A stretch of DNA of 64,000 nt from NCBI GenBank assembly GCA_973895155.1, contig OZ316892.1:26993233-27057232 (forward strand). The letters are read 5' to 3'. This DNA comes from Marsupella aquatica. Lineage: Eukaryota > Plantae > Marchantiophyta. Positions 2,408-25,900 of the stretch are shown piece by piece (position 1 is the first letter of the stretch; the number at the start of each line of letters is the position of its first letter). A model generated the notes under the pieces. It did no database searches. It was given only the letters and a program-made list of their open reading frames with translations, and was not told the origin of the DNA. The position numbers were made by a program, and so were the translations under genes.

Positions 2408-5400
2408 TCAAACTTGGTCCTCATCATCTTCAGGTTGGGACACAACCAGAATATCAGGCTTTTCCCCAACGATTGAACGAGACCGTGGCACATATGTGAT
2501 GACAAGTGACCATTCCTCTAGGTTTGGGGGGTATGGAATATAGAAACATTGTTCCACATGACTTGGAAAAGTGAACGGCTCTGATGTTTGCCAATGAGAT
2601 GGCTGGAAACTAGTGGCAGACGTCTTCAGTCGTGTAAATCCACACTCATCTTGAACCACAGTAGGATTGTTACCTGCAAGGTTCACTTTGAACCACTTGC
2701 ACTTGAAGACATACTCTTCAAACTTTGATTGTGCATCATAAGATATCACTAGAATCTCTTCTACCTTTCCATAATGTGGCACAACATCTCGAATAATATT
2801 TGTGTCATGGCGACTGCTGCGGGAATCTTGAGAGAATTGTCCTTGAACTCCACAATCAAAGGTACGACCCCTCTTCTCATCAAGGGAAGAAATCCTAAAA
2901 TCCATCAAACCATAAGGATATGTTACACAAAAATAGACACAAACATATTCCAATTAATTGAACACACCAAGAATCTGCCTCTTCAATATACGTGCTTGTA
3001 TTACAAATGAATTAAATTAAACCAAGTGATTCAAATCAAAGGTTACTAAGGTAGATGGAGATCACCTGAAATGTCTTCCTTGTGTCCACATTGTTGTCCT
3101 TGTTGTAACCACTCTCAAGGGACCATGAACAATGGTACGAACATCATCTGTGATAGCCGGAAAATGTAATACACTCTCTCCCCTGACCACCATGTCATCC
3201 ACCTCAACTAACTTCTCCTTCATATAGTCAAGGTACTTTGGAAAAATCCTTGGTCTTGTGCTGTTACTTTTGGCATCCTCATAGAAATCCCTCCATTCTT
3301 CCATGATAGTGCTGTTACTCAACATGAATGTGGTCAGTTGTTTCACCTCCACTGGTGTCAACATGCGAGTTTTCTTAGCACCTGTTAAACAATCCTCTTC
3401 ATCTTCCCTCTCCTCTACCCAAGTACGGGGAGAGGTACAATCAATTGTGGCCAATATGTTACTACAATAGAACATACTCTCAGCTGCTAAGTATCCTGTA
3501 GCCATGCTTCCCTCAACCAGTGCACGGTTACGTACATAACCTTTTAACACTGCCATGTATCGTTCTAGCCAATACATCCACCGACAATGCACAGGACCTG
3601 CAATGGCCACCTCATGAACAAGATGAACAAGTAAATGCACTTGACAGTCAAAAAAGGAAGGAGGAAGGGCCTTCTCCAACTTGCATACCACCTCTACTGC
3701 CAAAACCTCCATCCCAGGGATCTCATCAGTATATATCTCCTTACAGCATACCCATCTCAATAGTTTTCCCAATGACCAAAGGGCATCTTGCAATTCTTCA
3801 CTTGCCAAACCTATTATGGCCACAGGCAATATGTGCTGCAATAACCTATGGTAGTCATGTGTCTTGAGATACCTTGGCCACTTATGATTGTCCTCCATCC
3901 CAAAGGCCTTTCAGAGATTGGCACCATAACCAGTAGGAAACCGCATGTCTCCTATGCGATTCTGAAACTCCCTTCTCTGGCCAATAGGAAGCACCCATGG
4001 AGCTGAAGGTCGATGCTCGATCCCTGTGATAGGATCACTTATGACCCACACGTCTGGATGCATCTCAAGATCCTCACAAGCCTCCCTGAAGTTAGTGTCT
4101 TTCTCTCCATAGAAAGCCTTTATCAAAGCCTTTCCCACATTTCCCTCAATGTGCATGGGGTCTAATAGATGGCGGATCTTCAACTCACCCCAATAGGGCA
4201 AAGTGGTTAATATACTCCACCTTGTCAAGCCACTACCGTCAAATTGCATGGGATCCTTTGGGTCTGCCACTCTTGCAGCCATGTCTTTCCAGTGTGTAAA
4301 AGTTGTTGGCTCAGGTACATCACGCTCGTCACCAAAGGGCATATCAATAGAGGAAAATAGTAGTGGGTCACGCCTCATCTGATGTCCCACTGGAAGAAAC
4401 TTTGTATGCCCAAGATAAACAATCTTGCGAAGATGTGATGAATACTTGGCTACATCACCAAGGCTTGGGCCACAAGTGGAGCAAGCCTTGTAGCCTTGGG
4501 TTTGCAACCCACTCACAAAGCCAAATCCTGGTCATATAAACACACATTATGTTAGGATTAGCACATGGAAATGAGGGGATACTATGCATTAGAATATGAT
4601 GCATTTAAACAACAAAGTTCTTACCTGGGTAGTCATGCATGGTCCACATACAAACCCCTTTGAGTTTGAAAACCCGTGGGGTACCCCCTGTAGTCTTTCG
4701 ACCATCATATGCCCATACTCCTTCCCATAATATCTGGAGTTCCTGAACCAGTAATGTCAAATAGGTGTCCATGTTCTTCACCTTCTTTGGCCCTGGGATA
4801 ATCAAAGATAGCAACAAAAAACCCTTTTTCATGGACAACCATGGTGGAAGGTTGTAATTCATGAGAACCACAGGCCAGACCGATGTAGGTCTCCCCTTCC
4901 CTCCAAGTGAATGAGGGCTAACTCCATCTGATGCCAACCCCAGTCGCACATGCCGAGGGTCACGCTCAAAATCTGGCCATGTTGATTCCACATGTTTATG
5001 AGCAGGAGAGTCAACTGGTAATCGCATGACACCGGGCTCCGAACGATGTTTCTTGTGCCATACCATCAACTCGGCCAAGTCAGAACATCTATACATGTGC
5101 AACAAGCGAGGAATTATGGGGAACCAACGAACTGCTTTCCTTGGTACTTTCTGGGTTAGCATGTTTGGCTCATACCGTGGCTCATGACACACTGTGCATT
5201 CTGTGATATGGGCTGTATCCCCGTGAAATAACATGCAATCATTCACACAGGCATGAATAATATGGTAATCCATACCAATGGATGAGAGAACCTTCTTTGC
5301 ATCCTTCCAGGTCCCTGGCAACACATTCTCCGAGGGTAACATCAAGTCATGACAATATTCAAATATGTCTGATAACATAGAATTGCTTGTCTTGTGTTTG

Positions 5401-5801
5401 GCTTGAATGTTCAAGAGCCCCAATATGGCAGAAAGACGGCTCAACCGAGCACCCTCAAAAATAGGTGTTCGAGCATGTTCCTCTGCCTCTTTCCATTGTT
5501 GTTGTCCCTCTGGAGTATGTTGTGGCCGTGGGTCATTTGAAGGGCCAACCTCATGACCAATGTGAGGCACATCATCCTCAACATCGGCACCAAACCAATC
5601 AACCATGAAGTCATCCATGGCTCTATCTTGATCATGCATGACCTGGTCATCAGTCCGAGGTGCGGCTTCCTCATCAGCACCACCTACATCATTACTTGAT
5701 GAGGAATCACCCTCTGATGGTTCTCCCTCTTCTGGCATACCCATCTCCCGATATGTTGCTCTCAACCTTCGTGGTAACATTTGTTGAGATGGTTGCGCAT
5801 T
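2408..5801 (-). pseudogene. tnpD: CACTA-1 TnpD-like transposase (Transposase_21/DUF4218/DUF4216-type); predicted exons 5801-4625, 4527-3066, 2894-2408; one in-frame TGA at 3911-3913
   Basis: Motifs IHACVNDCMLF, LGLASDGVSP, YNLPPW, WTMHDYPG, LDPMHIEGNV, LKTHDYH, FFDCQVHLLVHL, WMYWLERYM, FKCKWF. GT-AG boundaries keep the frame. Confidence 0.93.
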
Positions 5802-6012
5802 CTATGCACATTACAACCAAAAAACCTCCTCATGTATATTTGACCAAGTACAACAAATTAAAATAGACTTAACACCATTCATTCAAGACATTAAGAATTA
5901 AAGTAAATGCATGGGCTAAAACCTTATTACTCCAAAATGAGCCCAAAGGCCATATATATAATAGTAAATGGGAAGTCCAAAATAGGTGCAAGAGGATAAA
6001 GGACATGATTTC

Positions 6013-6843
6013 CTAATCCCACTCATAGTGTGTGAATAACTCATCTCCTGCTCTAATGGTCCTAGTAGCAAGAACTAAGCAATGGTCCTTATGATATGTC
6101 GTGCCATATGGTGCCGGCATTGGACCATCAGTAAAAACCCACTCACAATTGGCCCTACGCTTGGGCCGAGTCCCCACAGTACTATTTATGAAACCAGCAA
6201 TATTCCCATTACGTATGGGATCACCATCTATCACCCGCTGCTCACTATACCTTCTAGTGCTACCATCAAAAGTATCCATCTCTAGAGCATATGTTTTCCA
6301 CTCAGGATGTTGTGCAAGGATCATGTTCCAATGTCTTCTCTTGTAGATGGGTCCACCGTATGGGAACAAAGTAGGACCCTCTCTACCACGAACACTTGAC
6401 CCACCCTCCTCATCCATGATGATATCCTCACAAGCAAATACTCCATATCCATGTCTCTCTCCAAGTGTGGAAGTTTTCACAATCCAACGTCTACCCCAAA
6501 CCACAATCTCCTCATCAAAATCTGTAAAATAAGGCAAGCCAAGAGTGATAGGTTCCCAATCCTTGATGATAGAGGCACACTTGCCAGTGAATGAACAAAC
6601 ACCCCACCTACCCTGAACTAGTGTTCTGGATGGGTCATTGGGTGCTCGTGGCCTCCTGTTGGATTGGGGCCTAGACCGGGGTCTTCGTGTCTCAGTGGGC
6701 ACATGAGGGTGTTCCCCTTCTGTCCCATGACTGGTACTAATTCCCAAACCCAAGGCTTGTGAAAGTGCATTGCCTATAGCATCTAAAACTCCTTGTGATG
6801 GGACATAGGGTGGTGGTGTCACCAATCTACGCATACTGGATCC
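6013..6843 (-). CDS. SET-domain protein exon (putative lysine methyltransferase) carried by CACTA-1
   Basis: Intact 273-aa ORF with SET motifs GYGVFA..DI, YGG, IDG...GNIAGFINS, ANC, LATRTIRAGDELFTHY. Acceptor AG at 6845-6844. Confidence 0.88.
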   Translation of the reverse strand, partial: GSSMRRLVTPPPYVPSQGVLDAIGNALSQALGLGISTSHGTEGEHPHVPTETRRPRSRPQSNRRPRAPNDPSRTLVQGRWGVCSFTGKCASIIKDWEPITLGLPYFTDFDEEIVVWGRRWIVKTSTLGERHGYGVFACEDIIMDEEGGSSVRGREGPTLFPYGGPIYKRRHWNMILAQHPEWKTYALEMDTFDGSTRRYSEQRVIDGDPIRNGNIAGFINSTVGTRPKRRANCEWVFTDGPMPAPYGTTYHKDHCLVLATRTIRAGDELFTHYEWD

Positions 6844-6954
6844 CTATTCCATGCAAACACCCACAAACAACCAAATGTGTAAACCATATGTGTAAACATT
6901 GATTCACCTCTAAAAATAACAGTAAAGCACGGCAATCAATTGAAACAAACTTAC

Positions 6955-7212
6955 CATATGGGATGAAGAAGCCCCGGGAGTAAGACCTCTATGATGTCCA
7001 TATCTCTCAATATGTTGAGCACACACATAAGATTTTTGAGAAATTTGGCCCACACATCTGGTGCAGTCACAAAGTCTTCGGGGTGGACCACGAGGACCAG
7101 TAACCTCGGGCTGAGGAGGAGGGGGTATATCGTTATCGGAGGAGTACTCACTACTGGATAGTTCAGAGGAAGAGGACATATCCACTGCCACATTACATTG
7201 CATGTAGGGCAT
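6955..7212 (-). CDS. First coding exon with transposase-associated CxCxxC...H zinc motif
   Basis: RLCDCTRC...CAQHIERYG matches the N-terminal motif of the other two CACTA transposases here (MYCSCMQC...QHLLKNG). Phase-0 donor ATG|GTAAGT at 6954. Confidence 0.75.
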
Positions 7213-7299
7213 GATTAGGAAAAATTAGGCCATATATAAAGCGATTTTAAAAAAAATGAACTCAAAAAACAATTAGGTTGGTTTATACATGGGGTTTTA

Positions 7300-8340
7300 T
7301 TACCCTTTTATATTTGTTAGCATGAAACCCAAATTAAGGTGAGTGTCATGCAAGAAGAAACCACATTATAACCTTTGGGAAAATTGTAATACCCTATGTC
7401 CTAAGTGAGGTTAGATTATTACCTGAATGAGACTCGGGCTCAACAGTGCCTATAGGTCACGTGGCTTTTGGAACATTTGCCAAATCTAGAAGTAGGAGGA
7501 AAATACTGGAAACAAAATGTAAGTTTGGATGGTAATTAGCAGCCGTCAAGTTGTGGAATCTTAGACATTTACCCACATATATCATAGCACAACAAAGAAG
7601 GGCAAGCATAAAAATCTGTACTAACAACATTGACTGTATACATGATGTTATACCTTTTAGATGCCCGGGTTCCCACAATGCATATGCATTAGACAAAAGT
7701 TGAGGTAGTAGTGTTGGCCCTGCGTTGTATCATGATTACATGGGTTTTCCCCTCAATTGTTAGCATAAAACCCTAAACCCTAAACCCTTATCCCCCCTCG
7801 AGTGAAAGGTGAGTGTCATGCAATAAAAACCCACCCTAGACCCCTGGGAAAACTCTAAAGGCCTAAGCCCAGAATGAAGTTGGACAATAATTACCTGAAT
7901 GAGATCCAGACTCAATAGTGCCTGTAGGTCGTGTGGCTCATTGAACATGAGCTGAATCTAGAAGCACGAGGAAAATACTGGAAACAAAAAAGTAAGTTTG
8001 GATAGCCATTAGCTTCTCTCAAGTTGTAGACCCCCAAACATGTGCATATAGATATTCTTGCACAACAAAGAAGGGCAAGGTTTATGAACAATCTCTTTAT
8101 CAAACCCTGCTAACATACATGTTTAAATATACCTTTTAGATGTCCGGGTTCCCACAATGCATATGCATTAGACAAAAGTTGAGGAAGCAGTGATGGTCCT
8201 GCACTGGATCATGATTACATGGGATTTCCCTCAATTGTTAGCATAAAAACCAAAACCTCATCCCGCTTCAAGTGAAAGGTGAGTGTCATGCAATAAAAAC
8301 CCACCATAGACCCTTGGGAACTCTAAAAGCGTAAGCCAAT
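7300..8340. repeat. ~470-bp tandem duplication (~2.2 copies) in the divergent promoter region of CACTA-1, with a telo-box (AAACCCT)x3 near 7768-7788
   Basis: GGTGAGTGTCATGCAA recurs at 7338, 7808 and 8278; blocks such as GGGTTCCCACAATGCATATGCATTAGACAAAAGTTGAGG occur twice. Confidence 0.85.
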
Positions 8341-9019
8341 GAAGTTAGCAAAAACCTAAATGGTCAATTCCCTTCAACCATCCTATGCTTCTCTCTACCA
8401 TAATTATATGCCACCCCTCTTGGTTACCCTCCTAAGATACCATAAAAGTAACCCAAGATACTATAAAACTGAAACCTCTCTTTCAAACCCTCCTAGCTCT
8501 CACCCTCCAATACATATAACCGCAACCTTCATAAATAAAACCCCCCTGCAAACCCAAAACATAAAACCCCTCGTATCTAAGCCAATCTAAGCCCAACCTT
8601 CACAAAAGAAACCCTCCCCTAACCAGGCCAAACCCCCTCCTCTTACCCTGCAATATAACTCCTTCAATTTTCTAACCCCCCCAATCCTTATCTCATCACA
8701 TCCCACTAAAATGCAACATAATCCTCTACATCTACCCCATTTAATGTTCATAAGCCCCCTTAGTATCCCTAACAACACATCAAATACGCATGCGAGACGG
8801 GGGTTATGGCAAAACCAAATAGCGAAGGCTTTTGCGAATCTTGAAGCTTCGCAAAGATAGAATTTGCGAAGCTTTTTGCGAAGGCCGATGCATCGCAAAC
8901 TGCGATGCGAAACGAATCGCAAAGCCCAATATTTTGAATCCTTATGGATTGCCGAGCGCGGACAAGGCGGATTCAGTTCATTCAGGCCTAAGGAGAGCAA
9001 CGAGGGCAAGGGCGGAGCG

Positions 9020-11112
9020 ATGGCGAGCGAAGAGGGGACTGGTGGTGATGGAGGAGCTTCTGGCAGCAGTGGAGGCAACCGAGGGGGGGGGGATCGATTG
9101 AAGGCGATTGTGGATGAGCATTTTTTGGTTGCACAGTTGAGTCAAATTGATTTCACCAGTCCAGCAGGGCTGGCATCATTGAGTGCCCTTCTGGGCCAAG
9201 CCTTGCAAGCAGGTCTCACTGCAGGGCAAGCAACAGTGGAGGAGGATGCAAGGAAGGCAGCAGAACAGGCGGCTGCTGAGAGGAAGCGAAAGAGGGAAGA
9301 GAGAGCTCAGGCTGGAGTGCTCTCGCCTCAAGCATTGGAAAAGAAGAGGAGGAAAGATGAGAGAGACCTGATCAGGAAACAGAGGGAGGAGCAAAGAAAG
9401 AAGGAGGCAGCAAGGAGGAAGCTGCCTCTGATTACTTTAGAGGATGAGGGGATTCCCACCGAGCTTGCTTACAATGGGGCCAAGAGCACAATCAGGCACA
9501 TTGTATCCACAAATTTTGCAAGAGGAGTCGAGTGGGGCACTCGCTCAAAGGCAGAGCAGAAGCGAGTCATCAATCAGGTGAAAGATGCATTTCAAAATGG
9601 AGGAGAGATGGATTCACAGTGACTTGCTGACAAAATTTCAAACTCCATGTCACAAGCTAGATACCATGATAGAATGAAGATCAGGTCTCACCTTAGAGAT
9701 TTGGAGGAGTATAGGAATTTGCAGAGGCCGCTGCAATTCTCAGAAGATATCTGGCAGGCCTTCTACCAGACAGAGGTGAAGTTGAAAGCAGCCAGGCTCC
9801 TCAATGATTTCACAGAGAAGCTGGCAAAGGCTCGAAGGGCAAAGGAGGCCGGGAAGTCTGACCGGGACCTAAAGGTGATGGAGCAGAAGGTAGCCCAGCT
9901 CCAGCAGGTTGTAGCAGAAGTAGGCGATCCACCCAACAAGTTCCTGAAGGCAGCTGAGCGAGTCCGAGACAAACCCAACATCACCCACAGGCTGGGTCAA
10001 GGTGGCCTCCCCGGCCTCAAAGCAGCATTCGTGAGTGCACCTCCCTCTCCTCCCTTGACTTCTTGCTACTCCAATTCCTATTCCAACACACCTGCAATGA
10101 GCCAACTCTTTCTTGCATTTCCACCAAGTAGTTACAATTAGACTTGTTGTGTCAGATTAGGTCACGTACAGTTGCTTCCCTCTCGGGTTTTTGCCATGAC
10201 AGAGTTTGCGATACATTTGCGATGCGGGTAGCTTCGCAAATCCTTCGCAAACCTTATTATGCCCTTTTTTTGCTTATGTTTGCGAAGGCGTTGCGAAGAC
10301 GTTCGCATCGCAACCAGCTTCGCAAACGTAATTGTCCTTATGATTGCGAAGCTGGCGCCTTCGCAAAATTTCAAAAATTTGAATTTTTAAATTTTCCGAT
10401 CGTTTAAGTGTTCTTTGAGGGTCTTCCCCATATATGCCACCCTCCATAACCCCAAAACCTTGATGCACCACCCCACCAGCCCCAACAAACCCCCTAATTT
10501 TTAGAAGCCATGTGAATCGGGTTATGGGTTGGTGTTAACCCAATTGTGCTGGTTTTGTTTTGGCTTAGTACAAGAGGTACAAGAGGAAGATTATGGCGGC
10601 TGAGATGGAGGTGGGCCAGAAACATGGGAAGGAGCATCTCTTTCAGCAAGTTGATGAATTATTGGTGAGAATTTTTAGGTTATTACATTCATTGCAATTT
10701 TGAATGAATATCTCTTTTGTTCACACTTGTAAAGAATATGAGACTAACAGACACCCTGGTTTGCTAATGGAAGCAAGGAGGGGAGGATGGTGACTCCCAT
10801 ACCGAGGGTGGCACCGATAGTAGTGATGAGGATGTGGAGGGGACAGGGGAGGGGAGCACAGCTCCTGCTACTCAAGCTAGGCCAACTAGCACTAGAGACC
10901 AGTCATTTGCATCAGCACATTCCAGTGGTGCTGGGGGTGGTAGCGCGGCAAGCCAGGGCGGTGGAGGTGGGGATGAGGATGAGGATGAGGGTGACCCCGA
11001 GGGTGACCAAGAGGAGGAGGAAGTCCAGGTTGCACCCCCCCCAAGAGCACACAAGGGCAAGGAGAAGGCCAAGGGGAAGAAGGCAAGGAGGGGCAGGAAC
11101 ACTCCTTTCTAG
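9020..11112 (+). pseudogene. CACTA-1 ORF2 / TnpA-like protein, multi-exon, divergent from the transposase; premature TGA at 9620-9622
   Basis: ORFs 8864-9622 and 9647-10141 are in the same frame across one TGA. THRLGQGG motif resembles Transposase_24-type proteins. Donor GTGAGT at 10031; acidic/basic tail 10834-11112. Confidence 0.65.
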
Positions 11113-11364
11113 CTCGATGTAGACAAGTTGTAGCTAGAGCACTTACATCGAGTTCACATGTATAGCGATCAGCATGCATGGCCGTGGCACTTTACCTAAG
11201 GGTTTTTACCCTTCCATTTTGTAACTTTTGTACTTTTTCAGTAATGCCATTTTAATTGCGGCAGACTGGGTCAACATCACTTTCCTCCCTCCTTCAAAAC
11301 CCATGAATGGTCTCCCTCACCCTCACCCTAACCCAAATACACAAAAACCCATGAAATATACATT

Positions 11365-11880
11365 TTGCGAAGCTTTTGAGAACCAACCCCCATCTCAAAG
11401 AGCCACGGTGAACGTATCGCAACCATTCCGAGGAGAAACGCATCGCAACACTTGCGATGTTGTCTAAATCACAACCCTAGCGAAGACTTACTCTCCACAC
11501 GTTTGCGAGTTAAATGCCTTCGCAACAAAGCGGTCATCCGCTTCTCGCAATCTTACGAGTTTGTTTGCATCGCAAGTTATAGAGAAATTTAACATCGGAA
11601 ATTGCGATGTAAATGTTATCGCAACGCGAGCGATTCATTTGTTCTCGCAAAATAATGAAATTTGTCATTTCTCAATATTTGCAAGGACAGTGCCGTCGCA
11701 ACGTTGCGGAGATGTTGCGACGTATTTAGAATCGCAAGTTGTGAAGTAGTTGCGAAGGGCCGTTTGCGAAGAATTTGAGATGGGAAGTAGCGAAGACGTT
11801 GCGATGCGAGTAAGTTTGCAAATTGGGTATTTTGGATTTTGTTTCCTTTGTATGATGCGAAGGGTGGTGGTTCGCAAAAG
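11365..11880. repeat. CACTA-1 right subterminal TCGCA/TGCGA array
   Basis: Same motif as 1075-1600, directly before the right TIR. Confidence 0.85.
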
Positions 11881-11900
11881 AGGTGCATAGTGTTGTAGTG

Positions 11901-13150
11901 CATGGAGGTCAGTCAACGAAGAAGAAGACAAGTACTTGATCGAGAGGCCATTTTGGGAACATCAAAAGCGCTCAAGGGCAAAGGAGTGAACAATGGGGAA
12001 GAAGCAAGAAGACCAAGAGAAGAGGAGAGGAAAGAAAGTTATGTTGATGACCTATCAAAGCTCATGGAAGGATTAAAAATCCTAAGCACACAAGTGATGG
12101 GGCCGAAAAACAACTTGTGACAAGGAGGGAGCTCGAGTCGAGGCAGTACTTGGGGTTGTATGTGGTGTGATAACAAAGATCATGCTAGAAGGGATTGTAG
12201 GGAATTTTCTGAAACACTCAGAAAACAACATGTAAAGTTTTTTGGTGAAGCTGGCATGAAAAAGATTGCATACTTTGATTCTGGAGAACCTGTGCCACTC
12301 AATGGCAACAAAGGAGGTATGAAGGCATTGGTGGAAAAAAGGTTAGCTGAGCAAGATGTAAGTATGGTAGCAGCAACATATGAGCCAAATGTCTATGCAG
12401 CTCAGAGACATGAAGACCTTGCAGCAAATTTGTCTTTACTCAATAAGAAAAGATTAGCTGAGCATGTTCGACGTCAAACAGGATGGGATGTACCTGTTCA
12501 CATCACGGCTATCACAACTGAAGTAGGAGCAGCTTGGGATGTTACAGTGGAAGACAAACACAAGGCTGCAGAAGAGGCAAGAAAAGAATCTCGACAAAAA
12601 CAGCAAAGGATAAACGAAGAATCCAAAAGGAAGACTGTGCGTTTCAAACCAACAAAAGGATCAAGCTCCAGTCCCGGCTCAAGCAAAGAGTCATATGGAA
12701 ATAGTTCTGGACCTGAGGGGCTAGTTAGTAAGAAGAAGCAAGGAAACAAGGGTCCTGGTTGGGTGCTAGGCCGAGATGTCGAGAGAGATCTTGATCCAGA
12801 AGCATTGGCCAACAAATTTTGGAAGCAAGAAGTACGGGGTTTCACTAACGAAGAGTTTTTTGGCTGTCTAAGGAGGGATGTTCAAGAAATAGTATTAGCC
12901 AAGGCTAAGAAGAAGAGATTCTACAAGGAGGGTCCACATGCCTTGGCTGGATCAATCTCAGAAGATTCAGATGAAGACATGGAGGGAAGAGAGAGTTACT
13001 TAACACAAATCTTGGAGCAAGAGGATGGAGCAGATCCAGAGGAGCATGAAGAGTGGGTGCAAGTCTATGATGCTAGTTTTGAAGATGTCAACACATCTCT
13101 TGGATGGGAGACAAGACAAGAAGAAGCAACAAAAGCTTATTGGGCAAGAG
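11901..13150 (+). pseudogene. gag: gag continuation with CCHC zinc knuckle; stop at 12118-12120
   Basis: CMWCDNKDHARRDC = CX2CX4HX4C, in frame with the N-terminal gag after CACTA-1 removal. Confidence 0.88.
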
Positions 13151-13457
13151 CTCGGGGGCCTCAATCCAAGGGGTGTCTCATATCACGCTCGAAGTTTTGG
13201 GGGAATAAACACCCTAAAAGTTAAGTCAATAAAGTTTTTTTTAGGAATTTTTTAACCCCTAACTTAATGGAATATTCCAAGAATATTCTCATATTTGATT
13301 TTAAAAAACCCTATGATTCTCATAATTCTCAAAATTGGATTAAAATAACCCTAATGTTCTTCAACAAAAATTTAAAAGTATTTCACTAAACCCAATAAAA
13401 AAACCCTATACTTATTTGCGCGTGATGGGTCGGAATAAAAGAAGTGAGGACCCCGGG
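13151..13457. mobile_element. 307-bp MITE with 13-bp imperfect TIRs and 8-bp TSD GGCAAGAG; related to the P-like element end at 28116
   Basis: Left end CTCGGGGGCCTCA vs right end rc CCCGGGGTCCTCA. TSD at 13143-13150 and 13458-13465. Removal restores YWAR-GCSECLVEL. Confidence 0.93.
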
Positions 13458-13465
13458 GGCAAGAG

Positions 13466-13935
13466 GGTGCTCTGAATGCCTAGTGGAGCTTGAGGGAATC
13501 AAGGGCACAATACGTGCACTACTTGATTCTGGTTCTGAGGTAAACCTCATGTCCTTGAAGTTGTACAAAGAAGGGCAGTGGAAGGTGGATCGAGACATCA
13601 ATTGGGGAGTTAAAGCAGTAAATGCTACCAAAAATGGATTGTGAGGAGCATGTCCAAGAGTCAAAATTAGAGTAGCCCATGTGGTAGAGCCTATCAATAT
13701 TTTTGTGCATGAGAATCTTCCATATGATTTTCTCCTTGGGCAGCCTTTCATCACAGAGTTAAGGTTGGAGACAAGAGTGCTTGATGATGGTACTCATGTT
13801 GGAAAGGTGAAGAGTCGAGATGGCATGAGAGTCATCCAATTCCCTACTGTTCTTCCTAAAAATAGTAGGAACAAGAAAGAACTAAGAGGACCTGAGTTTC
13901 GTCAAGGGAGACAAGACTCTCAAGATTTCTCTTAG
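13466..13935 (+). pseudogene. Aspartic protease of the retrotransposon; TGA at 13642-13644
   Basis: LLDSGSEVNLM active-site motif and FLLGQPF flap motif. Confidence 0.9.
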
Positions 13936-14212
13936 GCGCCCTGCATGCTAAGATGGAGTTCAAGCGAGGCGCCAATCTGATATCTCCATCTCCACAGGTC
14001 AGGATTGAAGCTCATCAGTTTTTTTTTCTTCCTTTCATGGAATAAGTAAGAATAGGGTTGTTTCATTTGTAGAAAAAGAAAAATTTTCAAGAAAGCTACA
14101 AAAAAGAATGGATAGAAAGAGGAAAGGTTTGCAAGAAGATGGTATCATAAAAGAAAGTGAATAGATTTTTGGCATCTTAGAAGAGAGTGGATGTGAACCA
14201 TCGATAGAGGAA

Positions 14213-17200
14213 GTGCTTCTATCAATATATCAAGGTGAATCAGAGATAGAGATTGGAAGAAGTTTATATGAGGTTCTAGCCTACCTAGTTCAGGAAGAGA
14301 TTGAGGTTAACACCAAATATAAAATAGTGGATAAAAAGATTAGACCAGCAGCTACTCCATTACCTTTAGAAGCTAAAGAGTTGCTACAGAAAGCTAGTAA
14401 AGAACCTTCTTTGAGGAATTGGGATAAGATAGGTCATACATTCACTAAGAAGACATTGGATAGTTTGCAAATTGGAGGGGATGGCTTACTCACCAATGTT
14501 GAGGTCGAGGCTTTTCGGAAGATGATATCAAAACATGGAAAGGCCCTTTCCTTCAACATAGATGAAATAGGTTGTGTCAACCCAAGGGAAGTGACACCAA
14601 TGATCATCTTTACTGTTCCTCATATTCCATGGGATTTGAGGCCATTACCAATACCTCGAGCATTGATGCAAGGAGTGGTAGACTTGCTGAAGGAGAAGTT
14701 GAAAGCAAGAATCTTGGAGAGATCCAATGCACCATATGCAAATCGTTGGTTCACTGTGAGAAAGAAAAATGAGAAGTTGCGATTCATTCAAGATATGCAG
14801 CCGCCAAACAAGGTCATAATCAGAAATGTTGGCACCGGACCAGTGGTTGATGAATTTGCAGAGGAGTTTGCTGGTAAGGCAATTTACTCAATTGGGGATC
14901 TGTATTCTGGGTATGATCAATTCTAACTTGTTGAAAGTAGCAGGGATATTACCACCATGAGAACACCGTTGGGGTTGATGAAGATGTGTACCTTGCCACA
15001 AGGAGCTACAAATTCAGTAGCCCACATGCAAAATGCCATGAATAGGATTTTGCAATCTTTTATTCCACAAAAGACTCGACCATTTTTGGATGACATTCCT
15101 ATCAAGGGATGTGTGGAGGAGTGCAAGGATAAAACAGTTAGGGAGGATGGACTACGACAATTTGTGTGAAACCATCTTCAAGACGTTGCAGCAATTCTGA
15201 AACTATTGATGGAGGTTGGTGTTACACTTTCTGGTGAAAAATCTGCATTTGGCCTTATAGAGATCTTAGTGGTTGGGCAGAAATGTGGTTCATATGGAAG
15301 GAAGTCTAATGATGCAAAAGTAGATGCTATTAATCATATGAAGGATTGTAGTTCCGTGAGTGAAGTTAGGAGATTTTTGGGTGGATGTGTGTTCTACAGA
15401 ATATGGATACCTCATTTTGCTCATATTGCAGAACCTCTATATGATTTATTAAGGAAGAAGGTTAAGTTTGTATGGACTGATAGACATTCCAAAGCAATGA
15501 CTAGGATGAAAGAAGCATTGTTAAGTCCACCAGTTCTTAGAACAATAAACTATGACAATGATCAACCTGTAATTGTCATAGTTGATTCTAGTCCCATAGC
15601 AGTAGGATGGGCTATAGGACAGGATGACGAGGAAGGACATCGTTTTGCTACTCGCTTTGGGGCTAAGATCTTTGATGAAAGGCAAAGAAGGTACCCGCAA
15701 GTCAAACGAGAACTATGGGGTGCAAGATGCGCCATAAGACAAGAGAAAGATTTCTTGATAGGAGCAAAGGTTATTCTGGAAACTGATTATAAGCCATTAT
15801 TAGGGATGATCTCTAACTGTGACACTCCAGATATAGCTATGCTAAGGTGGATAGCCTTTATTAGGATGATTAATCCTGAACTAAGGCATATCAAGGAAAA
15901 AGATAATCCAATGGCTAATATGTTATCAAGGGCAAGATATCACAAGAATAAAATAATTAGTAAACATGTCATAGCAGTCAGTGGAAGTGAGGCACATACA
16001 GAAATTGAGTCTATAGAGTTTAAAGAAGAACTCTATTCGGGGAAGCTACGAATCATAGGGCAATATCTGAAGAAATTGGAAAAAGAAGAAGGGTGGACAC
16101 ATGAGGAGTTCAAGAAGATTCGGAAAGAGGCATACCAATTTCTTCTCAGAGATGAGTATCTTTGGAAACGTCCAAAGAAAAAGGGACATGTGCCTTTGCG
16201 GGTCATTGATGATGTTGATACAAAGGCACAAGTACTTCAAAATTATCATGATGATCAAACAGCAGGACATAGAGGAGTCCAAGCTACTTACAATAAGATT
16301 CGTGAGTTCTATTGGTGGCCACGAGTTTACATGGATGTTAGGGACTATGTGGAGAGTTGTAAGGTGTGCCAAATATACTCCAAGCTAAGGCATAGAGATG
16401 GGTTGAAGCCTACTTACCCATTGGCCTTACATTTTCAATGGATGTTAGACATAGTGCATATGCCAAATGGAACAAAGGGTGCAAAGTACTTAGTATTGGC
16501 AAGAGAAGACTTATCTTCATATGTAGAGGGAAGGGCACTAGCATCCAATAAGACAGAGCCGGTTTGTAGGTTTGTTTTGGAAGATATCATTGCTAGACAT
16601 GGATGTTTTTCTCAAATGAGGGCTGATCGAGGGGAGCTAAATAGTGAAGAAGCACACGATTTTTTTGCTAAGTTTGGCATCAAACTTAAGCTTACAACAT
16701 CTTATAATCTAGAGGCAAACGGAAAAAGTGAAAGAGGTCATCCACCAATAGTCAATGCTTTAGTTAAAGCATGCAAAGGCAACACATTCCAATGGCCTAA
16801 TCTACTACCATTAGCTCTGATGGCAGATAGATTAACTTGTAGCTCGGTTAGTGGATTTCTCCCTGTAGAGCTTGCTTCAGGACATTTACCATTGATGCCA
16901 ATTGAAGAAAAAGTACAAAGCTGGCGGACCATAGAGTGGAAGGATGAGGTTTCTAGAGAAGAATTGATTGCTAGAAGGATAGAGCATTTCAATCAGACTC
17001 CAGAAAAGATTGCTATAGCCTTAGAGCACGTCAAAGCTGCAAGATTGAAGAACAAATCAAGATTTGATTTGACTCACCGACTCCGACCTATCCCAATCAA
17101 AGAAGGAGATTGGGTGCTTATCTCAGATAACGCTTTGGACAATCAACACTCAACACTTAAAAAGTTTGCGAGGCGATGGATGGGACCTTTTGTGGTCACC

Positions 17201-17386
17201 CAAATCCATGATAATGCAACATATAATGTCAAAGAGATGGACGGAACACATCATCGAACCCGATATGCAGGAAAGCGGATCAAGCTATTCAAAAGAAGGA
17301 CAAAATTTAGTGTCGAGGATATCATTGATGAAGACTTACCAAGTGAAGAAGAAATTTGGGACTCACATATTAGTAGGGGTGAATAG
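14213..17386 (+). pseudogene. pol: pol: reverse transcriptase, RNase H, integrase; stops at 14924 and 15167
   Basis: RT motifs DLYSGYDQ, LPQGATNS, FLDDI. RNase H IVDSS...RELWG...ETDYKPL. Integrase H-x6-H...CKVC, LDIVHMP, ADRGE, NGKSER, WMGPF. No chromodomain. Confidence 0.95.
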
Positions 17387-17430
17387 TCTTATCCAGAATG
17401 ATTGGTGTAGACCAGAGGCTGCACAGGTTT

Positions 17431-17443
17431 AGTAGGGGTGATA
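17431..17443 (+). promoter_or_regulatory. Polypurine tract
   Basis: AGTAGGGGTGATA directly before the TGTC start of the 3' LTR. Confidence 0.65.
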
Positions 17444-18715
17444 TGTCGTAAAAAAATGGTTTTGGAGTTAGAATACCTCACATAGAGTTTCTCACTCCAT
17501 TAGACATTATTAAAAATTAAATAAAAATAAATAGTGTGACTTAGAGTAGTTATTTATAAATTATTAGATATAATAGACCAAAATCATAGAATAGGTAAAA
17601 ATAAAATAGTATACCAAAATAATAGTATACCAAATGAGTATAGTAGACCAAATGAGTATAGTAGACCAAATGAGTATAGTATATCAAATGAGTATAGTAG
17701 ACCAAATGAGTATAGTAGACCAAATGAGTATAGTAGGCCAAGATAATAAAATAGGACAAAAATAAGATAGTGTGCCAAAAAAGTGGGCTAGCAAATTGTG
17801 GATAGTCCACTTTACAAAATAGTGTGCTAAGATAGTGGGCTAGCAAATTGTGGATAGTCCACTTTACAAAACAGTGTGCTAAGATAGTGGGCAAAAAAAG
17901 TGGGCTAGCAAATTGTGGGTGGTCAACATTTCAAAGTATAAATAGAAGGGAACTTGCTTCCCATAGGGCATTGTGTTCCCACTATTGAGAGTGGAGTCCA
18001 TGGTTTGCCTTGATATAACGGAGGACTATGCCGCCGATTTTCATGATGGAAGGAATTGAGGATTTTTCTTATGGTCATGGAGGGCTATGCCACCACTTAA
18101 GCACCTTAAGTTAAATACTCAAATCTGGCAAGGATGGCTATGTCGTCTGCATCAAGGATATATTATCAAAGGTTACCTTAGGCTTAGCTATTCCCATAGA
18201 TTGTGAATGATGTTGCATGGGTTGCCAAGAGTGCATAGACCACCGGGAGTGGTTGTCAACCCATTTTTGATTAGATTATATTGTTTAGATAAAAATGTAA
18301 TGCGTCAAATGCTTATGTATCAGTTTGGTATAGATTTTGCCACCATGGTTATGAATTTAAATGTTCCACTCATATTCCCGTAGTTACTTATGAAGAAGAG
18401 TGGGTGTGTACTATCTATATTTTGTATTAGAAAGGATGGATTTGAATCAAGTCCCAAATCCAATCTTAAATTTGATGTCTTCCTTGAGTCTAAAGATTAT
18501 TGTGCGAAGGAAGATAGCGTGTAGGGAAATCTTAATAAGAAAGTTTGGAGAAGAGTCGTAATATTATAGTATCTTCAGAAGAAGCTCTAATACTCTACGG
18601 GGATCATCCAATGGGAACTTTAAGTATTTTTGTGCTTGTATAGTTCAGGTGAGTAGTCGTATTTGCACAGGTAGCAAGGCCCAGTGCCTCTCGAGTAGAT
18701 TAAAACCCCAAGACA
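17444..18715 (+). repeat. 3' LTR (~1272 bp), TG...CA
   Basis: Starts TGTCGT after the PPT and ends AAGACA; last 354 bp match 1-357. The start coordinate is inferred because the 5' copy is truncated. Confidence 0.85.
17629..17925 (+). repeat. Tandem repeats inside the LTR: 6x 18-bp ACCAAATGAGTATAGTAG (17629-17736), then ~52-bp GTGGGCTAGCAAATTGTGG units (x3)
   Basis: Directly visible. Confidence 0.9.
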
Positions 18716-20533
18716 ACGGCTCAAGTTTCAGTTTGCTTTGAGCTTTCGCTTGCTATTTTCTTCTGATGTAGTTTGCTGACATTTGAATAGGAGGAAGGCG
18801 ACGCTGGAAAGAAACAGTGGGAGGACGTCGTTGCCTGGCTGGACATTTGGATCGAGGTCACTGTGGAGGTCACAATTGAATCTTGGATTGAATCATTGAT
18901 TGTCATCCTAATTGTCGTGTGTGGTTCTTCACTTTGCAGCTTGCTATAGCCTGGAGGACGGCTACTCTTCAGAGAACAACAGTAACAAGTAAGTGACCAA
19001 AATGTTGAGGACTTGCGCTTTCTGCCTCCCATATGCAAGCTTCATAGAAACTGACGTCTCTACCATGATACCCTGGCTTGCTGATTGAGCTTGCTCGCTG
19101 CCTTGTTTGTATGTTTTTCTTTTGCATGTATTAGGAGGACGACAACGCTGGTTGGAGGACTATTGTTGTCGGTTGTGTAGCTGCGTCACATTGGAAGACA
19201 AGGACGGTCCGGAAGGGACGCTCGGCGAGGGCGGAGGCGAGGGTAGAAGAGCGTTACATCTAGTACCAGGTTTGAATCTAGCTCCTTGTCCAGGTTGCAA
19301 TTGCAAGTTTCCTAGACAACCAAGTCCACATTGTCTGTGTGCTTGCATTGCCTACTCGCATTGAAAAGAGCTAGTCTAGAATGTTACGTAGCTATTTCTT
19401 TTGTAGTAGTAGCCAAGCAGAATCCACAGAAGAGGCTTCCAATGTAGTATGCGACGGTCTGTACACATTGTTGTTGTGCTGCATTCATAATCGTTGCTCG
19501 GACCTGGGTTTGGTCAGGTCTCGCAGAAGTTTTGGTCAGGTCCTGGCTGCGGAATTTTTCTGCATCTTGCTTCTATTGAACTATCAAACTGAGGATTTTG
19601 TGTCTTGCATAGGATCTTCCTGATCTATGGAGCTCGTTTTGCTTGCCTCTTATCGGAAGCAATTGGGATTGAATGCCTTGTATTCCCTTCCCGGTTGTTG
19701 CTTTTGAACTTTGGCCAATAGGCTTCTTTGTGGTAGGCCGCCTTGAAATTGCCTTGAAATTGGGCGGTTGAAAAGCTTTGAAGGAGGTGGAGCGACTGTG
19801 GCCTTTTCCAGTGTTGTTACTACCAAATTTCCACTGCGAGGTATGTATGTGGTAATTAATTGATGTCGATAGCAAATAATTTAGTCTTGTTTGCTGTTAA
19901 GTAGGTTGAGTTCACTTCAGTTTACTAGACAGACAAACCCTCAGAGTTAAGCAAATACTTAAGTTTGAGGAAGCTTGTTGGTAGTATGACTGTGAACAAT
20001 GTCATAGCGCAGGTCAACATTATTGTCTGCAAGGGCTTCATTCTGAATTTTCTGCTCCACTGTTGTCTTTGTAGGGCGAGGCGAGTTCACTTACTAGTGG
20101 TGGGTCTCGGATCGTGTTGTTTAGGGCTGTATTCTATATTGGTGTTGTGCAGAAAATAGCATACTTCATGTGTGGATCTCCCTTCTTTTCAATTAATTAT
20201 GGTCTGGTGTATGTACTATAGATGAAGTTGTGTAGTATTATAATTCAACTGTTTGACTGATTTGAATGTACAGAGACAGGACAGTGGACCATCTAGGGGA
20301 ATGGACACTTGTTTCATGGATATGCATTTTTACTCTCATTTTTACTACGCTGGTGAGTCGCTGATATGTTTTAATTATGCACTATGGAATGTGCAGATTC
20401 ACACAATCTTGGGTGGTGACCAGGAGTTCGGGTTCTCATTCGACTACAGAAGTTGTGGGGAGCCTAGGATCCAAGTAAGCTCCACTTTGTTGCAGAGGAC
20501 AACAGGGCCTTTAGCTTTAGGGTTGACTATGCC

Positions 20534-20959
20534 ATGGGTCGTAGATATGAGTCTGCACCAAAGGTTTTGCCCTGTTCAATTTCGAAGCCAATTTTTGAGG
20601 GTGTGAATGCCTTCTTAGTTCCAAATGAATTTTCAAGAGCTCATTTTGAAGTTTTCCATAGAAAGCTAATTGAACGTCATGGTCAGCTTTGCACTGTTGC
20701 TTCCAGCAACACCACTCACATTGTTGCTGGTTCTTGGAGAGCAGTCATGTCCGAGTGGACATGGTCTGGTGTTAATTCCCTCATTCAAGAGCAGGCATTG
20801 AAAGTTGTCTAATTTGAATGGATGTGCGAATCCCTCAAAGAAGGAGTCCTACCGGAAGAAGGCCCTTTCAACTTAATGTTGACTGAGGTAGAGTCTGAGG
20901 TAGATTGTGCTAAGAGAAAAGTAGAACAGATTGAACAGGATAAGGCAGGTTCAGTTTGA
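20534..20959 (+). pseudogene. Single BRCT-domain protein; TAA at 20810-20812
   Basis: IFEGVNAFL...TTHIVAG...LKVV*FEWMCESL. Homologous to the first BRCT of ORF 52556-53419. Confidence 0.8.
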
Positions 20960-21289
20960 AGAAGTATAAACTTGATCAAGCCAAAACGTAAATGTGTGTA
21001 GCTTACTGTAAATGTAACCTCTACTCAGTCTTGGAGCAATTTAATAAAGCGTTGCTTGCTGCAATTCTTTGCAAATCCGCTGTTTGGTTCTTGGAGCACT
21101 ATGTAGTTCCTTTGGTTTGTGTAGGTTTTTAAAGATTAGTTGCTTCTCTTTTTTGTGCAGGGACATTCTAGCGCAAGGCAGAAAGTGTGGAAGTTCTGGG
21201 TCCAAGCAAAGGTTGGCCCTTGTACCCTATTTGTTGTGGCCTTGTGATTTTGTTGGAGTGAGCACAATCTCAATCTAGGTGCACTAAAG

Positions 21290-21727
21290 ATGGTTGTGAC
21301 ATGCAGTGCATTGTCTGAGTACCATCAACAGAAGGGTGAGCGATTCCATGTGAAGATGATTCACAATGGGGTCGTGCCTACTGACTATGCTGTGACGTGG
21401 GGCTATCCAAGTCTGCCTTGCAACCATTATAGGAGGCTGAATACATCCCCACTAGTCCCAAACAGTATCCGTCTAGTTAAACGGACACTTGGGGTGTTGG
21501 ATGAGGACTGTGTCTTCCTGGAGGCTTGTCTCCATTGTCACACCCAGACATGTGATCGTTGTAGGGGAGGTCACTCAAACATAGTGCAGACTTTTGCACA
21601 GTACATGGCAAGAATGGCATGGGGCCGTTGCCTAGCATGGAATACTTGTCATTTCATCAATGATTGTGTCTGTGATGGGACACGTCCAGGTTCTGCCCGT
21701 GATGATGATGCACATTCAAGTTGTTGA
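21290..21727 (+). CDS. ~145-aa Cys/His-rich protein of unknown family (copy A)
   Basis: Open ORF; aligns with 37818-38264 and 55353-55802 (ACLHCHTQTCDRC). Confidence 0.72.
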   Translation: MVVTCSALSEYHQQKGERFHVKMIHNGVVPTDYAVTWGYPSLPCNHYRRLNTSPLVPNSIRLVKRTLGVLDEDCVFLEACLHCHTQTCDRCRGGHSNIVQTFAQYMARMAWGRCLAWNTCHFINDCVCDGTRPGSARDDDAHSSC

Positions 21728-21894
21728 CGTCTAATTTGCATTCCTCATATTGCAAGATGGATCAAAAGAGCCCACAGGGAAGTGATGCCCCTGGTGGAGG
21801 CTACTGGCTGTGATTGCTGGTGGACTGTTGCTCCTTCTGGTACATCACATGCCTGTCCCTATTTTTGAAGGTAATTTTGCAGATCTTGTTCAGC

Positions 21895-22590
21895 ATGGCA
21901 CACATCGCTCGTCAGTTGCTGGATCCAAGATTTGGGCATAGGGAGCACCTTTGTATGGATCCCCCTTGTTGTTTTGAATGTGACGAGGGAGGAACTGTTT
22001 TGTTCTGTGATGGCCCTTGTGGTCGCCATTTTCATTATATAGTTGATGGCCACAACCCTGATGAAGAAGATGGCCATGGACCTACATGTCAGCGCATTGT
22101 CATTTCCAGAGGTCATGATTGGGCTGCAGCTTGGCTCTGTGATCTCAGTCAGCAAAACAGAGGAAGATGTTTTGGTTGTGGGCTCCTTGGCAGAACCTTG
22201 AGACCCAGCACAGATGAGCCCCTTGTGGTCCAGTGTTCTCATGATGATTGCTACTCATTTTACCATGTGGGTTGCCTCCGGACACTTCTGCGATTGGGGG
22301 AAATGCCATTCACCCGCCATCGAGATAACCCTGATGCACATCCCGATGCTTTTATATGCCCACGACATTACTGTGAGGTCTGTAAGGAGTATCGGGAGGG
22401 CATTTGGGACTTTGTCCAATGTTGTAGATGCCCTCGTGCATGGTGTCGTGATGAAGGACCAACAGCAGACAGACACTTGAGGAGAGGGGTGAGGGGCCGA
22501 GACACCTGGGACATTGGATAGTGGCACATGATTTATTGTAATCGCCATGTCATTCTAGAGGGTTCTGATATCCCTAGTACCCATGACTAG
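21895..22590 (+). pseudogene. EDM2/NSD-type multi-PHD finger protein (copy A); TAG at 22519-22521 near the C-terminus
   Basis: CFECDEGG...CDGPCGRHFH; CFGCGLLG...QCSHDDCYSFYHVGCL; FICPRHYCEVC...QCCRCPRAW; IYCNRH after the stop. Confidence 0.85.
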
Positions 22591-22912
22591 ACACATCATG
22601 ACTGCTACAAATTCCATCTTACAAACTTCAACCTTTTTTGTAGTGGACCCATAAGACAACCTAAATTATATGAACTTAAGTATTTGGTTGAATGCTATGG
22701 ACTTAAGTATTTCGATGAATGAAAGGGACCTAAGTATTTGGTTGAACAAAATGGAATTTTGATGAATTGAAATGGACTACAATAGATTGAGTGTTCAGAT
22801 GACATTGTGAATGGTTGACTTGAGTCCTGATCTTTTTCCATGTCTATCCATTGTTGTATGACAGGTTCATCTACCTAATCCCTCTCCCTCACAGCCTGTA
22901 TAACTGTCCATC

Positions 22913-25900
22913 ATGGCACACCTAGGCATGAGCTCTGTCAGATTGGTAGAAAAGGGTGAGGAGGGAGGAAAGCCTGATATGCCAATCTGTGTCATGTCCT
23001 TCAAAGAAGGGCAGACTCTGGCAGATTTTTGTCTAAAATGTGTTGGTGCAGTAGAGTTTGACTTTGATTTTGGGGATGAGAGGTTGTCTGGTCGAGTCCG
23101 GCGCTTTTTAGAGAAGACTGTTGGGGTGACTGAACTTCAAGGGACAATTTACGTGATTGCAGAGTTACCCTCAATTGCCTTGCCTGCGGAGAGGGTCACT
23201 ATTGGTTCCTCTCATTCATCTGCTGCCATTGTGTCCAATGTGGCAGGCACGACTCTATTGTCTCAAGGACAAACACAAGGGGTGCCAGTACAGGCTATTG
23301 TACAGCCTGTCACGGGCTCCTTTGAGTCTCACCTCATATCTGAGGCTGCATCAAAGGCTTGGAATGATGAGTGGGTGGAGCTACAATCCTGGGTAAACCA
23401 GAAGGGCTTTGGTGAGCACAAGTGGAAAGTGCGGACGTGGGATGAGGGAGGGGAGTGTCAAGGTCATCTAGAATGCTTAGAGTGTAGGGAGACTTATGGG
23501 AATGCAGCCACTTCACAGGTGCTCAAGTCCATTGCAAATTGCTTTAGCAACTTCAAGACAAAGCACCTGACCAACCCTAAACACAAGGAGAACTGGTGTA
23601 AGCGAAGGGGTTTAGCTGGAGCTTTGGTGACGGCTGCTGACACTATACAGCAACCACTGTTTGATCATAGTATGCAAATAGGGGCTGGTGTGGAAATAGT
23701 GGGAAAGTTGAATGCAGAGGTAGGTGGGGTGGTAGAAGTGTTCTCTATCACACCATCTCCCACTGATCCAACATTTGCACAGAGGTCATTCCTGTCTAAG
23801 GTGAGATGTACAGTCTGTGGTGAGCTACATACTGACATGTGCCTTAAGAAATCCAATTTGGAACACAATTTAAGGCAACATCTTGTCAGTCGGGATCATA
23901 TGGATGCACTTGAGAACGTCGTCACCAGTACCCAGGCTGCACTGAGGGCAAGGAAGAAGGGGAGACCAAGGAAGCCTGATGCTCGTGATCTGTTTCCATC
24001 TCAAAATTCTATTATGAATTTCTTTAGAGAGGACAACTCTGCTGCAAGGAGCAGTTCAGGCAGAGGTGGGTTGTATTCCTCCATTGAGCCAAGTTTAAGT
24101 TTGCTTTGTTGGGGCTATGGGAGTCAGAGGTCAAGTGGACAGGGGATTCTATGGCTGTGAAGGGCATACTTGATGATCAAGAGGGAGGGAATGTCTGGGA
24201 CTGTGACCGTACCACCCGTGCTGAGGTTTTCAATATAACTAGCCAATTAGTTGTTGGTATACAGGATTGTTTTAGGCACAAGCAATGTCACAGGGTGTCC
24301 ATTAATGGAGGTGGTTTTCAAAACCTCACTTGCACTCTATGTGATTCTATAAAACGTGAAGATGATTTTCGTGGCAGGGTGCACAGGGAAGCGAAAGCAT
24401 TAGTGCAGAGAGGAGACAGGACTACACAGGGTGGGATGAGGTTGGCATACTTGACCAAAACCGAACTGAGGGAATAGGTTGGTAACCTCAACACTCGCTT
24501 TAGGAAACAGCGTTGGCTGTTGGCACAACAGGCTCAGAAAATTTGTGCCTTGAGTGTTAGGCGAAAGAAGCTAGAAGATTTATTAGGAGTAGCCCATGAT
24601 AGGAAAGATTTAAGACTGTTTCTGAGAAATATTGTGAATGGACATAGGCATGGTGCTTTTGGTGGCAAGGAAGGGTTGTGGGATTTCCTGACAGATGTAG
24701 CTAAGAACTTGCAGAGAGTTGCTAAGGGTTATCAATACAGTAAGAGAACCAAGGCCTTTTCCCAAGCCATGTTCTAGTTTGGAGGTAGACAAGTGGCTCA
24801 TTGTTTCCAGGAAGATCTAGGTGGTCCAGGTCTGAAGACCTTAAAATGTGATAGAGCAAAACTACCACCCTTTAGAGCTGGCATTCAAAAAGAGATATTC
24901 CAGGAGGTGTGCAGAGTACTATGTGCATCAAAGCAGTCACTTGGAATTTCAGGAGATGTACCAGTAATGTTTGCTGAGGATGAAACAAGGATAAAAGAGA
25001 GACCCAGGTTTGTGTTTTTGTCTCTATAGTAAATTAGCTTGTTCTTTTCAATGTGTTGGATGAGTTTGCACGTCATGAGCTGATGTCTGTATTGTATTGT
25101 GTGTAACAGATGGGAAGCTAAATATGACACCCTCATTGGTTTCTGTGGCCCCTTAGAGGAGCACACATGTTCTTTTGGCTTGGAAGTATTGGTTGGAGTA
25201 GGTACTGAAGGGTATGACAAGATTGTAAGTACTTTTGAGCAGTATGCCAAAGACATGTATGCTAGAGTAATCATTGTCAATCTTGAGCTGCATGCAAAGA
25301 TGCCTAAATTGGCATTGTGTGTTGTACCAACATGTAACAAGTTTAAAGCTCCCTGGGTAAGAGAGCATTGGGTGCAGCTAAAGTCCATGTGGGACACACA
25401 TTGTAGAGACAGTGTTGGTCCTTTGTTGGGCCATGCTAGTGATGGTGATGCTCATCGTAGGAAATTGATGATGGAAGATTATACTGCTATGAATGTTTCC
25501 TTTCCTAGGTACAGTGTAGGATGGGTTGGGTGGCAATACTCAGTGTCCATACTTTCGAATGGAGATTTATATGGTTTTGGAGACCAAGACCCACCTCACA
25601 ATGGCAAAAAGGCAATTAACCCATTAGACCGAGTGTTTGCTATGTTAGTCCTTGGTGATCAGCATGCATCTTTGTCAAATGTCACATCTGTTTATAACCA
25701 CTATGCAATTCATGAGCATGGTTTGCATTGGGATGATGTGAATAGGACAGATAGACAAAATTGGGCTGGCCCACAACGAATAGCTTCCAGGAGAGTGCAA
25801 GCCTGCCTGCAGCATATGTATGAGCAATGAGATGTTTGTCATGACAGAAGCTTTGGGACCATGATATACTTGGAGGTTTGTGCAGACTACATGGATATTT

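Follow-up and report, generated by a model that had tools for sequence, protein, structure and literature searches.

A 307-bp MITE at positions 13151 to 13457 of the window (the whole 64-kb stretch of DNA analysed here) is probably a recent, high-copy member of a divergent P-type transposon family that is moved in trans by an intact copy elsewhere.

Structure and mobility of the MITE

The MITE is non-coding, has an interior of ~25% GC and was assigned to neither strand. Its inverted ends are built in two parts, and it is flanked by an exact 8-bp target site duplication (TSD), GGCAAGAG, the left copy of which lies at 13143 to 13150 and the right copy at 13458 to 13465 on the forward strand. A 9-bp TSD with the right end of the element at 13456 also fits the local letters, yet it is disfavoured, since 13457 was the commonest right loose end in all four sequencing runs compared and the intact homolog L005, described below, has an 8-bp and not a 9-bp TSD.

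The host of the MITE is a gypsy LTR retrotransposon on the forward strand (1 to 18715), the left LTR of which is cut by the start of the window and the right LTR of which ends at 18715. The two LTRs are identical at 342 of 354 aligned bases, and the element has Pfam matches to RNase H and integrase. A preliminary description of this DNA had placed the MITE in the gypsy gag; the MITE does lie within the gypsy element, but at the junction of gag and protease rather than in gag proper, just upstream of an aspartic-protease match (gag-asp_proteas, E=1e-4) that begins ~17 codons downstream of the insertion.

Contigs from four public sequencing runs (X2 to X5) were compared with window positions 12750 to 13850; five runs contain part of the P-like region considered below. 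In all four runs the MITE is not present at the matching site, where a joint leads from 13141 to 13457 and skips 315 nt, corresponding to the element plus one copy of the TSD (307 + 8). The flanks of this empty site are near-identical to the window, and one X3 contig (record 9) spans the site with one difference on each side. The empty-site contig of X2 has about half the depth of the flank, and thus a near-identical paralogous copy of the gypsy element could be its source. Among the matches listed, 16 to 58 contigs per row have loose ends at 13151 and 13457, and the flanks at these ends agree only at ~0.35; therefore, the MITE occupies many unrelated insertion sites with exact ends. Summed contig depth, which is not a copy number but gives a clear order of magnitude, reached 9,000 to 34,000 over the MITE against ~30 over the flank in X2 and 127,000 to 320,000 against 56 to 69 in X5; across runs, the MITE stands at hundreds to thousands of times the flank depth. 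Taken together, the empty site and the many copies that end at 13151 and 13457 in unrelated flanks demonstrate that the MITE moved after the gypsy element had inserted. No copy of the MITE was found in the 60 metagenome loci that carry homologs of the P-like transposase. The ratio of MITE depth to flank depth was roughly 5-10 times higher in X2 and X4 (organism A) than in X3 and X5 (organism B), with near-identical flanks throughout; a recent lineage-specific burst is a possible explanation, and a tentative one because contig depth is not copy number.

The P-like relic and its intact relative

A decayed P-type transposase gene occupies positions 22904 to 27429 on the forward strand, with the motifs EDET at 24973, SDGD at ~25432, D(2)H at ~25582 and E at ~26164. 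Its HSPs contain eight stops and several frame changes, and therefore this local copy is a dead relic that cannot be the helper of the MITE. Named homologs were found in Riccia sorocarpa, R. fluitans and Calypogeia fissa (46-58% identity) and in the fern Adiantum nelumboides, and a liverwort is accordingly the likely host. A profile search returned 1458 cluster representatives at E <1e-10, and a metagenome scan yielded 60 homolog loci, in 43 of which a blind search for TIRs with an 8-bp TSD was performed around the gene. The only convincing pair in these 43 loci delimits L005 (192 to 6287), a 6.1-kb element whose 26-bp TIR is perfect, whose TSD is 8 bp long and whose one intact ORF encodes 1493 aa; the TIR runs on with mismatches to about position 50. 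A TIR pair in L026 (10/12 tip matches) and matches that were AT- or GC-rich were treated as chance, and L002 has both tips without a matching TSD.

The alignment with the window gene covers residues 148-1467 of L005, and 42% of the 719 aligned core residues are identical. An AF2 model of the L005 core (pLDDT 85.6) was compared with known structures, and the best Foldseek match was 6p5a (E=4e-10), followed by RAG1 as the next family (4e-4). With VIA, the model aligned to 6p5a_A at Z 23.9 (rmsd 3.8, 407 of 442 residues aligned); the next best were RAG1 at Z 8.4 and Hermes at Z 7.6 (rmsd 8.0), and the L005 core model accordingly does not have the Hermes-type fold of hAT transposases. An RNase H domain split by a P-type helical GTP-binding insertion is present in the model. 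In a 34-row alignment (A3), the three DDE residues are kept in 21/23, 28/28 and 22/22 rows and the D and H of D(2)H in 30/30, and both motifs are also readable in the window copy. P-type TSDs are 7-8 bp long, and those of the MITE and of L005 are both 8 bp. Judged by the modelled fold and the motifs of its homologs, the decayed window gene is a P-superfamily-type transposase, and the assignment of the family to the P superfamily is made with high confidence.

Sequence profiles did not reveal this relationship in most cases. There was no Pfam match to a P transposase or THAP in the window pieces (22904-27294), in five close homologs or in L005, nor any THAP match at E up to 10 in the N-termini of L005 or L002; the Tnp_P_element cutoff was passed by one of 28 distant homologs, and a second matched below the cutoff. 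Atlas neighbours at 0.78-0.82 carry TNP-like families, which is a lead only. A PDB sequence search with alignment A2 gave 0 matches at E up to 10, the C-terminal ~290 aa of the L005 transposase have no Pfam match, and none of 21 candidate stretches in viral contigs held a relative. Two C2H2-like pairs are conserved in the family (C197/C200/H227/H233 and C311/C321/H334/H340), together with a third Cys cluster. The N-terminal model resembled only beta-grasp folds, weakly, over residues 1-85 (Z <=7.8), and a beta-grasp (ubiquitin-like) domain is tentatively predicted at 875-1130 of L005, at the start of the transposase. In L030-L034, L044-L049 and L053 (GC 0.57-0.68) the core of the transposase is divided among frames and recognisable tips of the family are missing; these loci possibly derive from other hosts with introns or insertions.

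Position 28116 is very likely the true terminus of the P-like element, because the tip on the reverse strand (28102 to 28116) is identical to the TIR tip of intact L005 at 14 of 15 bases and depth is at a low-copy level by 28195-28375. When two runs were compared over 18660-28700, depth over 22-28 kb was 220-780 in X2 and 1,500-5,000 in X5, and it dropped in the last bin to 33 and 85, respectively; contigs at 28195-28506 have a depth of 30-41. No loose end at exactly 28116 occurs among the matches listed, and the terminus was assigned to this base by the tip match. In L011, L012 and L013, which are 99% identical copies, divergence begins exactly at the CCCGGGG tip. The 5' tip of the local copy was found nowhere in the window, whether by PWM or by pattern. 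The likely 5' part of the element, on the forward strand at 18716 to 22903, holds BRCT-like and PHD cargo and was attributed to it by a contig joint in X5 and by its multi-copy depth; in the 60 metagenome loci there was no tblastx match to the cargo region (18716-22900). Since no 5' tip lies between 18715 and the gene, and since an X5 contig connects 18717-19498 with 27468 (29 nt on its short side), the gypsy element likely inserted into the P-like element, whose 5' tip would then lie outside the window, on its upstream side. This makes the local P-like copy likely older than the gypsy element, and the later mobility belongs to the MITE. The earlier proposal that the family was mobile after the retrotransposon inserted consequently holds for the MITE, by the empty site in four of four runs, but not for the local P-like copy, which is broken and likely interrupted by the gypsy element.

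Two-part ends and their proposed function

End A of the MITE, on the forward strand, has a 15-bp tip block at 13151 to 13165 and, at positions 32-41 from the tip, an inner motif at 13182 to 13191 that is a predicted transposase site; this end is similar to the 28116 end over ~90 bp. On the reverse strand, end B has its tip block at 13443 to 13457, defined by the tip sequence and the loose ends, and its inner motif, again at positions 32-41, at 13417 to 13426. The inner motif of the 28116 end, ATCACGTGCG, lies at 28076 to 28085 on the reverse strand. As had been reported in the preliminary description, the three ends share CyCGG, TCA and ATCACG; all three were found where they had been quoted, and the 64-kb window has no exact match to CYCGG-N5-TCA-N18-ATCACG other than those at 13151(+), 13457(-) and 28116(-). 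When up to two mismatches were allowed, there were four matches against 0.26 expected, the fourth (two mismatches) being at 5070, and 0 of 100 shuffles reached four; the signature was derived from the three window ends, so this control is partly circular and the independent test lies in other elements. Local alignment of end A with the 28116 end scored 48, whereas the maximum among 200 shuffles was 38. Apart from the ~90 bp of one end, the MITE interior does not align to the P-like element.

Matrices for the tip (positions 1-15) and the inner motif (32-41) were trained on the three window ends only; the tip matrix by itself was used to pick ends in 42 loci, and the inner PWM score was read afterwards. 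Ten of 27 tip matches were kept for the inner-motif test; of the 17 that were dropped, 10 came from GC-rich loci, 2 nearly duplicated L011 and 5 had tips that were not C[ACT][CT]GG-like. Six of the 10 ends contained the inner motif at a distance of 32-34 bp from the tip, with locus-background fractions of 0.0001-0.0021 in five and 0.014 in the sixth. The ATCACGTGCG of the 28116 end recurs unchanged in L002R and L011R, where it is set one base deeper, and the right ends of L011-L013 all carry it at position 33. No score was obtained at the remaining four ends (L005L, L005R, L028R and L014R), which include both ends of the intact L005; these two have a common block of their own, ATA[CG]GTGAGA, at +2, behind a stretch of mismatched positions. 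The 32-34 range was fixed after the scores were known; if the fractions are corrected threefold for having scanned nine offsets, five ends still fall below 0.01. The ends L001R and L002R are relatives of each other and the tip of L001R was moved 1 nt by hand, so that the combined p of 1e-11, obtained with this post hoc range, exaggerates the case.

All 11 of the 11 ends have ACCCT/AGGGT motifs on the inner side of position 42 (20 occurrences vs 2.5 in mononucleotide shuffles), the broader ACCCT-type motif being only ~threefold denser near ends than in element interiors. These comparisons support the shared bipartite signature of the MITE and the 28116 end, in that the ends are related, end A of the MITE aligns above all shuffles and related elements have two-part ends as well; at the level of sequence, the two-part end appears to be a family trait in related elements, not a universal one. 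The spacing proposed as fixed drifts by 0-2 nt (inner motif at 32-34), and the inner motif of L005 has diverged. Likewise, the signature was said to define the cis-requirements of the family and seems too narrow for that, as the tip extends over ~15 bp (to CACT) and ACCCT/AGGGT lies further inside; the motif first described would be part, not all, of a candidate cis signal.

We propose that an intact transposase copy elsewhere in the genome likely moves the MITE in trans. In this account each end consists of a conserved 15-bp tip, C[TCA]CGG...CACT, a freely varying spacer of 16-18 bp and the inner block ATCACGTGCG at 32-41 (shift 0-2 nt), with scattered ACCCT/AGGGT motifs further in. By analogy with the P element, whose mechanism is taken here from a part of PMC7776569, the transposase supplied in trans would pair both ends, its RNase H/GTP-binding core would engage and cut the tip, and insertion would occur with an 8-bp stagger, probably with GTP; the same part of that source describes a GTP requirement and 17-nt staggered end cleavage for the P superfamily. 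N-terminal C2H2-like zinc fingers, replacing THAP, are predicted to bind the inner block.

We lean toward the inner block being a separate site. The main rival, which is conceivable although rather unlikely, is one long TIR of ~40 bp with a drifted middle, the inner block of which would be contacted by the core or HTH and not by the N-terminal domain. The mismatched extension of the L005 TIR is in keeping with it, as is the architecture of Drosophila P, the TIR of which spans 31 bp, with the THAP site lying inward of it (PMC7776569); positions 32-41 adjoin a TIR of P size, and the ACCCT/AGGGT repeats are alternative candidate binding sites for the fingers. However, in both the MITE and L002 the spacers at the two ends of one element are unrelated and both blocks are preserved. 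Across the 11 anchored ends, columns 1-15 and 32-41 are highly conserved and those in between poorly so, and the elements differ by 0-2 nt in the length of the spacer. The inner motif starts at nearly the same position at the two ends of one element (32/32 in the MITE, 32/33 in L002, equal in L005).

It is very improbable that 28116 is the end of an adjacent non-autonomous insertion and not of the transposase-bearing element. The bin 28040-28374 has a depth well above that of the element body and no TSD partner is visible, but the same tip follows the transposase gene by 0.6-1.1 kb in six homologous loci (L001, L005, L007 and L011-L013) and by ~0.7 kb in the window, there is no break in depth between the gene and the end bin, and no inward-facing partner tip lies between 18716 and 28116. 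If the excess depth of this bin is confined to the last 77 bp, there are ~tenfold more copies of the end than of the body, which would imply that the extra copies of the 28116 end are further non-autonomous derivatives. Least probable of all is that another superfamily with 8-bp TSDs, such as hAT, moved the MITE and that its likeness to 28116 is due to chance: 8-bp TSDs are not unique to P and the MITE interior is unaligned beyond one end, but homologous P-type transposases in unrelated contigs have this tip and inner block at their flanks, the alignment of end A with the 28116 end outscores every shuffle, and no such ends lie near the other transposase genes of the window.

Relation to known transposons and other features of the window

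The family described here has much in common with Drosophila P (6P5A), namely the predicted core fold (Z 23.9) with HTH, split RNase H, GTP-binding insertion and CTD, the DDE and D(2)H motifs, an 8-bp TSD, a terminal and a separate inner block, and non-autonomous derivatives. It differs in that structural-alignment identity is 14%, the protein is ~1500 aa long and that of Drosophila P 751 aa, the N-terminus carries C2H2-like fingers and a beta-grasp-like domain, Pfam gives no P or THAP match, the tips are mostly CCCGG or CTCGG, and a 15-bp tip block stands in place of the 31-bp TIR. The spacers of Drosophila P are unequal (9 and 21 bp, according to a part of PMC7776569), whereas those here are equal within 1 nt; the suggested likeness to a P-element TIR plus internal site is therefore seen in the two-part end and not in the spacing. 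Both THAP and unequal inner-site spacing, as in the animal P element/THAP9 family, are absent here, and THAP, the reader of P inner sites, is confined to animals according to PMC7776569.

In the part of PMC3698922 used here, the BuT5 MITE of the Drosophila repleta group has, like the present MITE, minimal TIRs, imperfect inner repeats and an 8-9-bp TSD, and it is linked to a divergent P transposase by common ends. As given there, BuT5 and its partner share 96-260 bp at 96-99% identity and BuT5 has THAP sites, whereas the present MITE is similar to the local relic only at the level of motifs over ~90 bp and its host is likely a bryophyte. The heptamer-spacer-nonamer signals of RAG/Transib likewise combine two conserved blocks with an intervening spacer that is free in sequence and limited in length. 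The fold here is far closer to P (Z 23.9 vs <=8.4), there is no 12/23 asymmetry, and the TSD is 8 bp, while that of RAG/Transib is 5 bp. With the TIR superfamilies of land plants (hAT, Mutator, CACTA, PIF/Harbinger, Tc1/mariner and Sola as well as Ginger) the family shares the MITE life style and, with hAT, the TSD, which is 8 bp in that superfamily; in contrast, the L005 fold matches Hermes only at Z 7.6.

Green algae have P elements on record. In a search of the literature by title and start of abstract, no P elements were reported in bryophytes or ferns, and the parts of PMC9033089 (Table 1) and PMC10741241 used here list six or seven TIR superfamilies of plants with P absent. Prior cataloguing of land-plant P elements, e.g., in Repbase/Dfam or in supplements, is possible. 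We see about an even chance that these elements represent an undescribed THAP-less P branch in liverworts and ferns, with ~1500-aa zinc-finger transposases, symmetric recombination-signal-like ends and an insertion-polymorphic MITE present in thousands. If so, P would join the DNA transposons of land plants, and the branch would be a natural system for P-type end pairing without THAP or the 9/21 asymmetry. A P-type family missed by Pfam (Riccia, Calypogeia, Adiantum) would escape standard annotation, and MITE finders that need near-perfect TIRs would overlook such ends; the two-block end could serve as a search signature and a minimal substrate, and the intact L005 as a matched pair of enzyme and ends for studying end recognition without THAP.

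Chromatin- and repair-related cargo was found repeatedly across the window. An NSD-type PHD gene within the P-like element (21814-22518) has 77% DNA identity to 36803-37486, a PHD gene situated between a CACTA-type end at 28889 and the CACTA transposase at 39239, which suggests that PHD genes are cargo common to two transposon superfamilies; a third PHD-like frame lies at 54003-54710. BRCT-like (20468-20809), twin-BRCT (52556-53419) and SET-domain (6013-6843) frames lie inside or adjoin DNA transposons. CACTA-like transposase regions are located at 2408-6843, 39239-43042 and 46277-51393, with Pfam confirmation for the one at 39239 only, and one CACTA-like region is nested in the gypsy element between gag pieces. 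In addition, 29660-30200 holds a foldback-like insertion that is GC-rich, has inverted arms 93 bp in length and contains CAGCTGAGAT motifs repeatedly, and at 30499-33827 a 408-bp unit, with a 52-bp near-palindrome in each copy, is tandemly arrayed in 8-9 copies.
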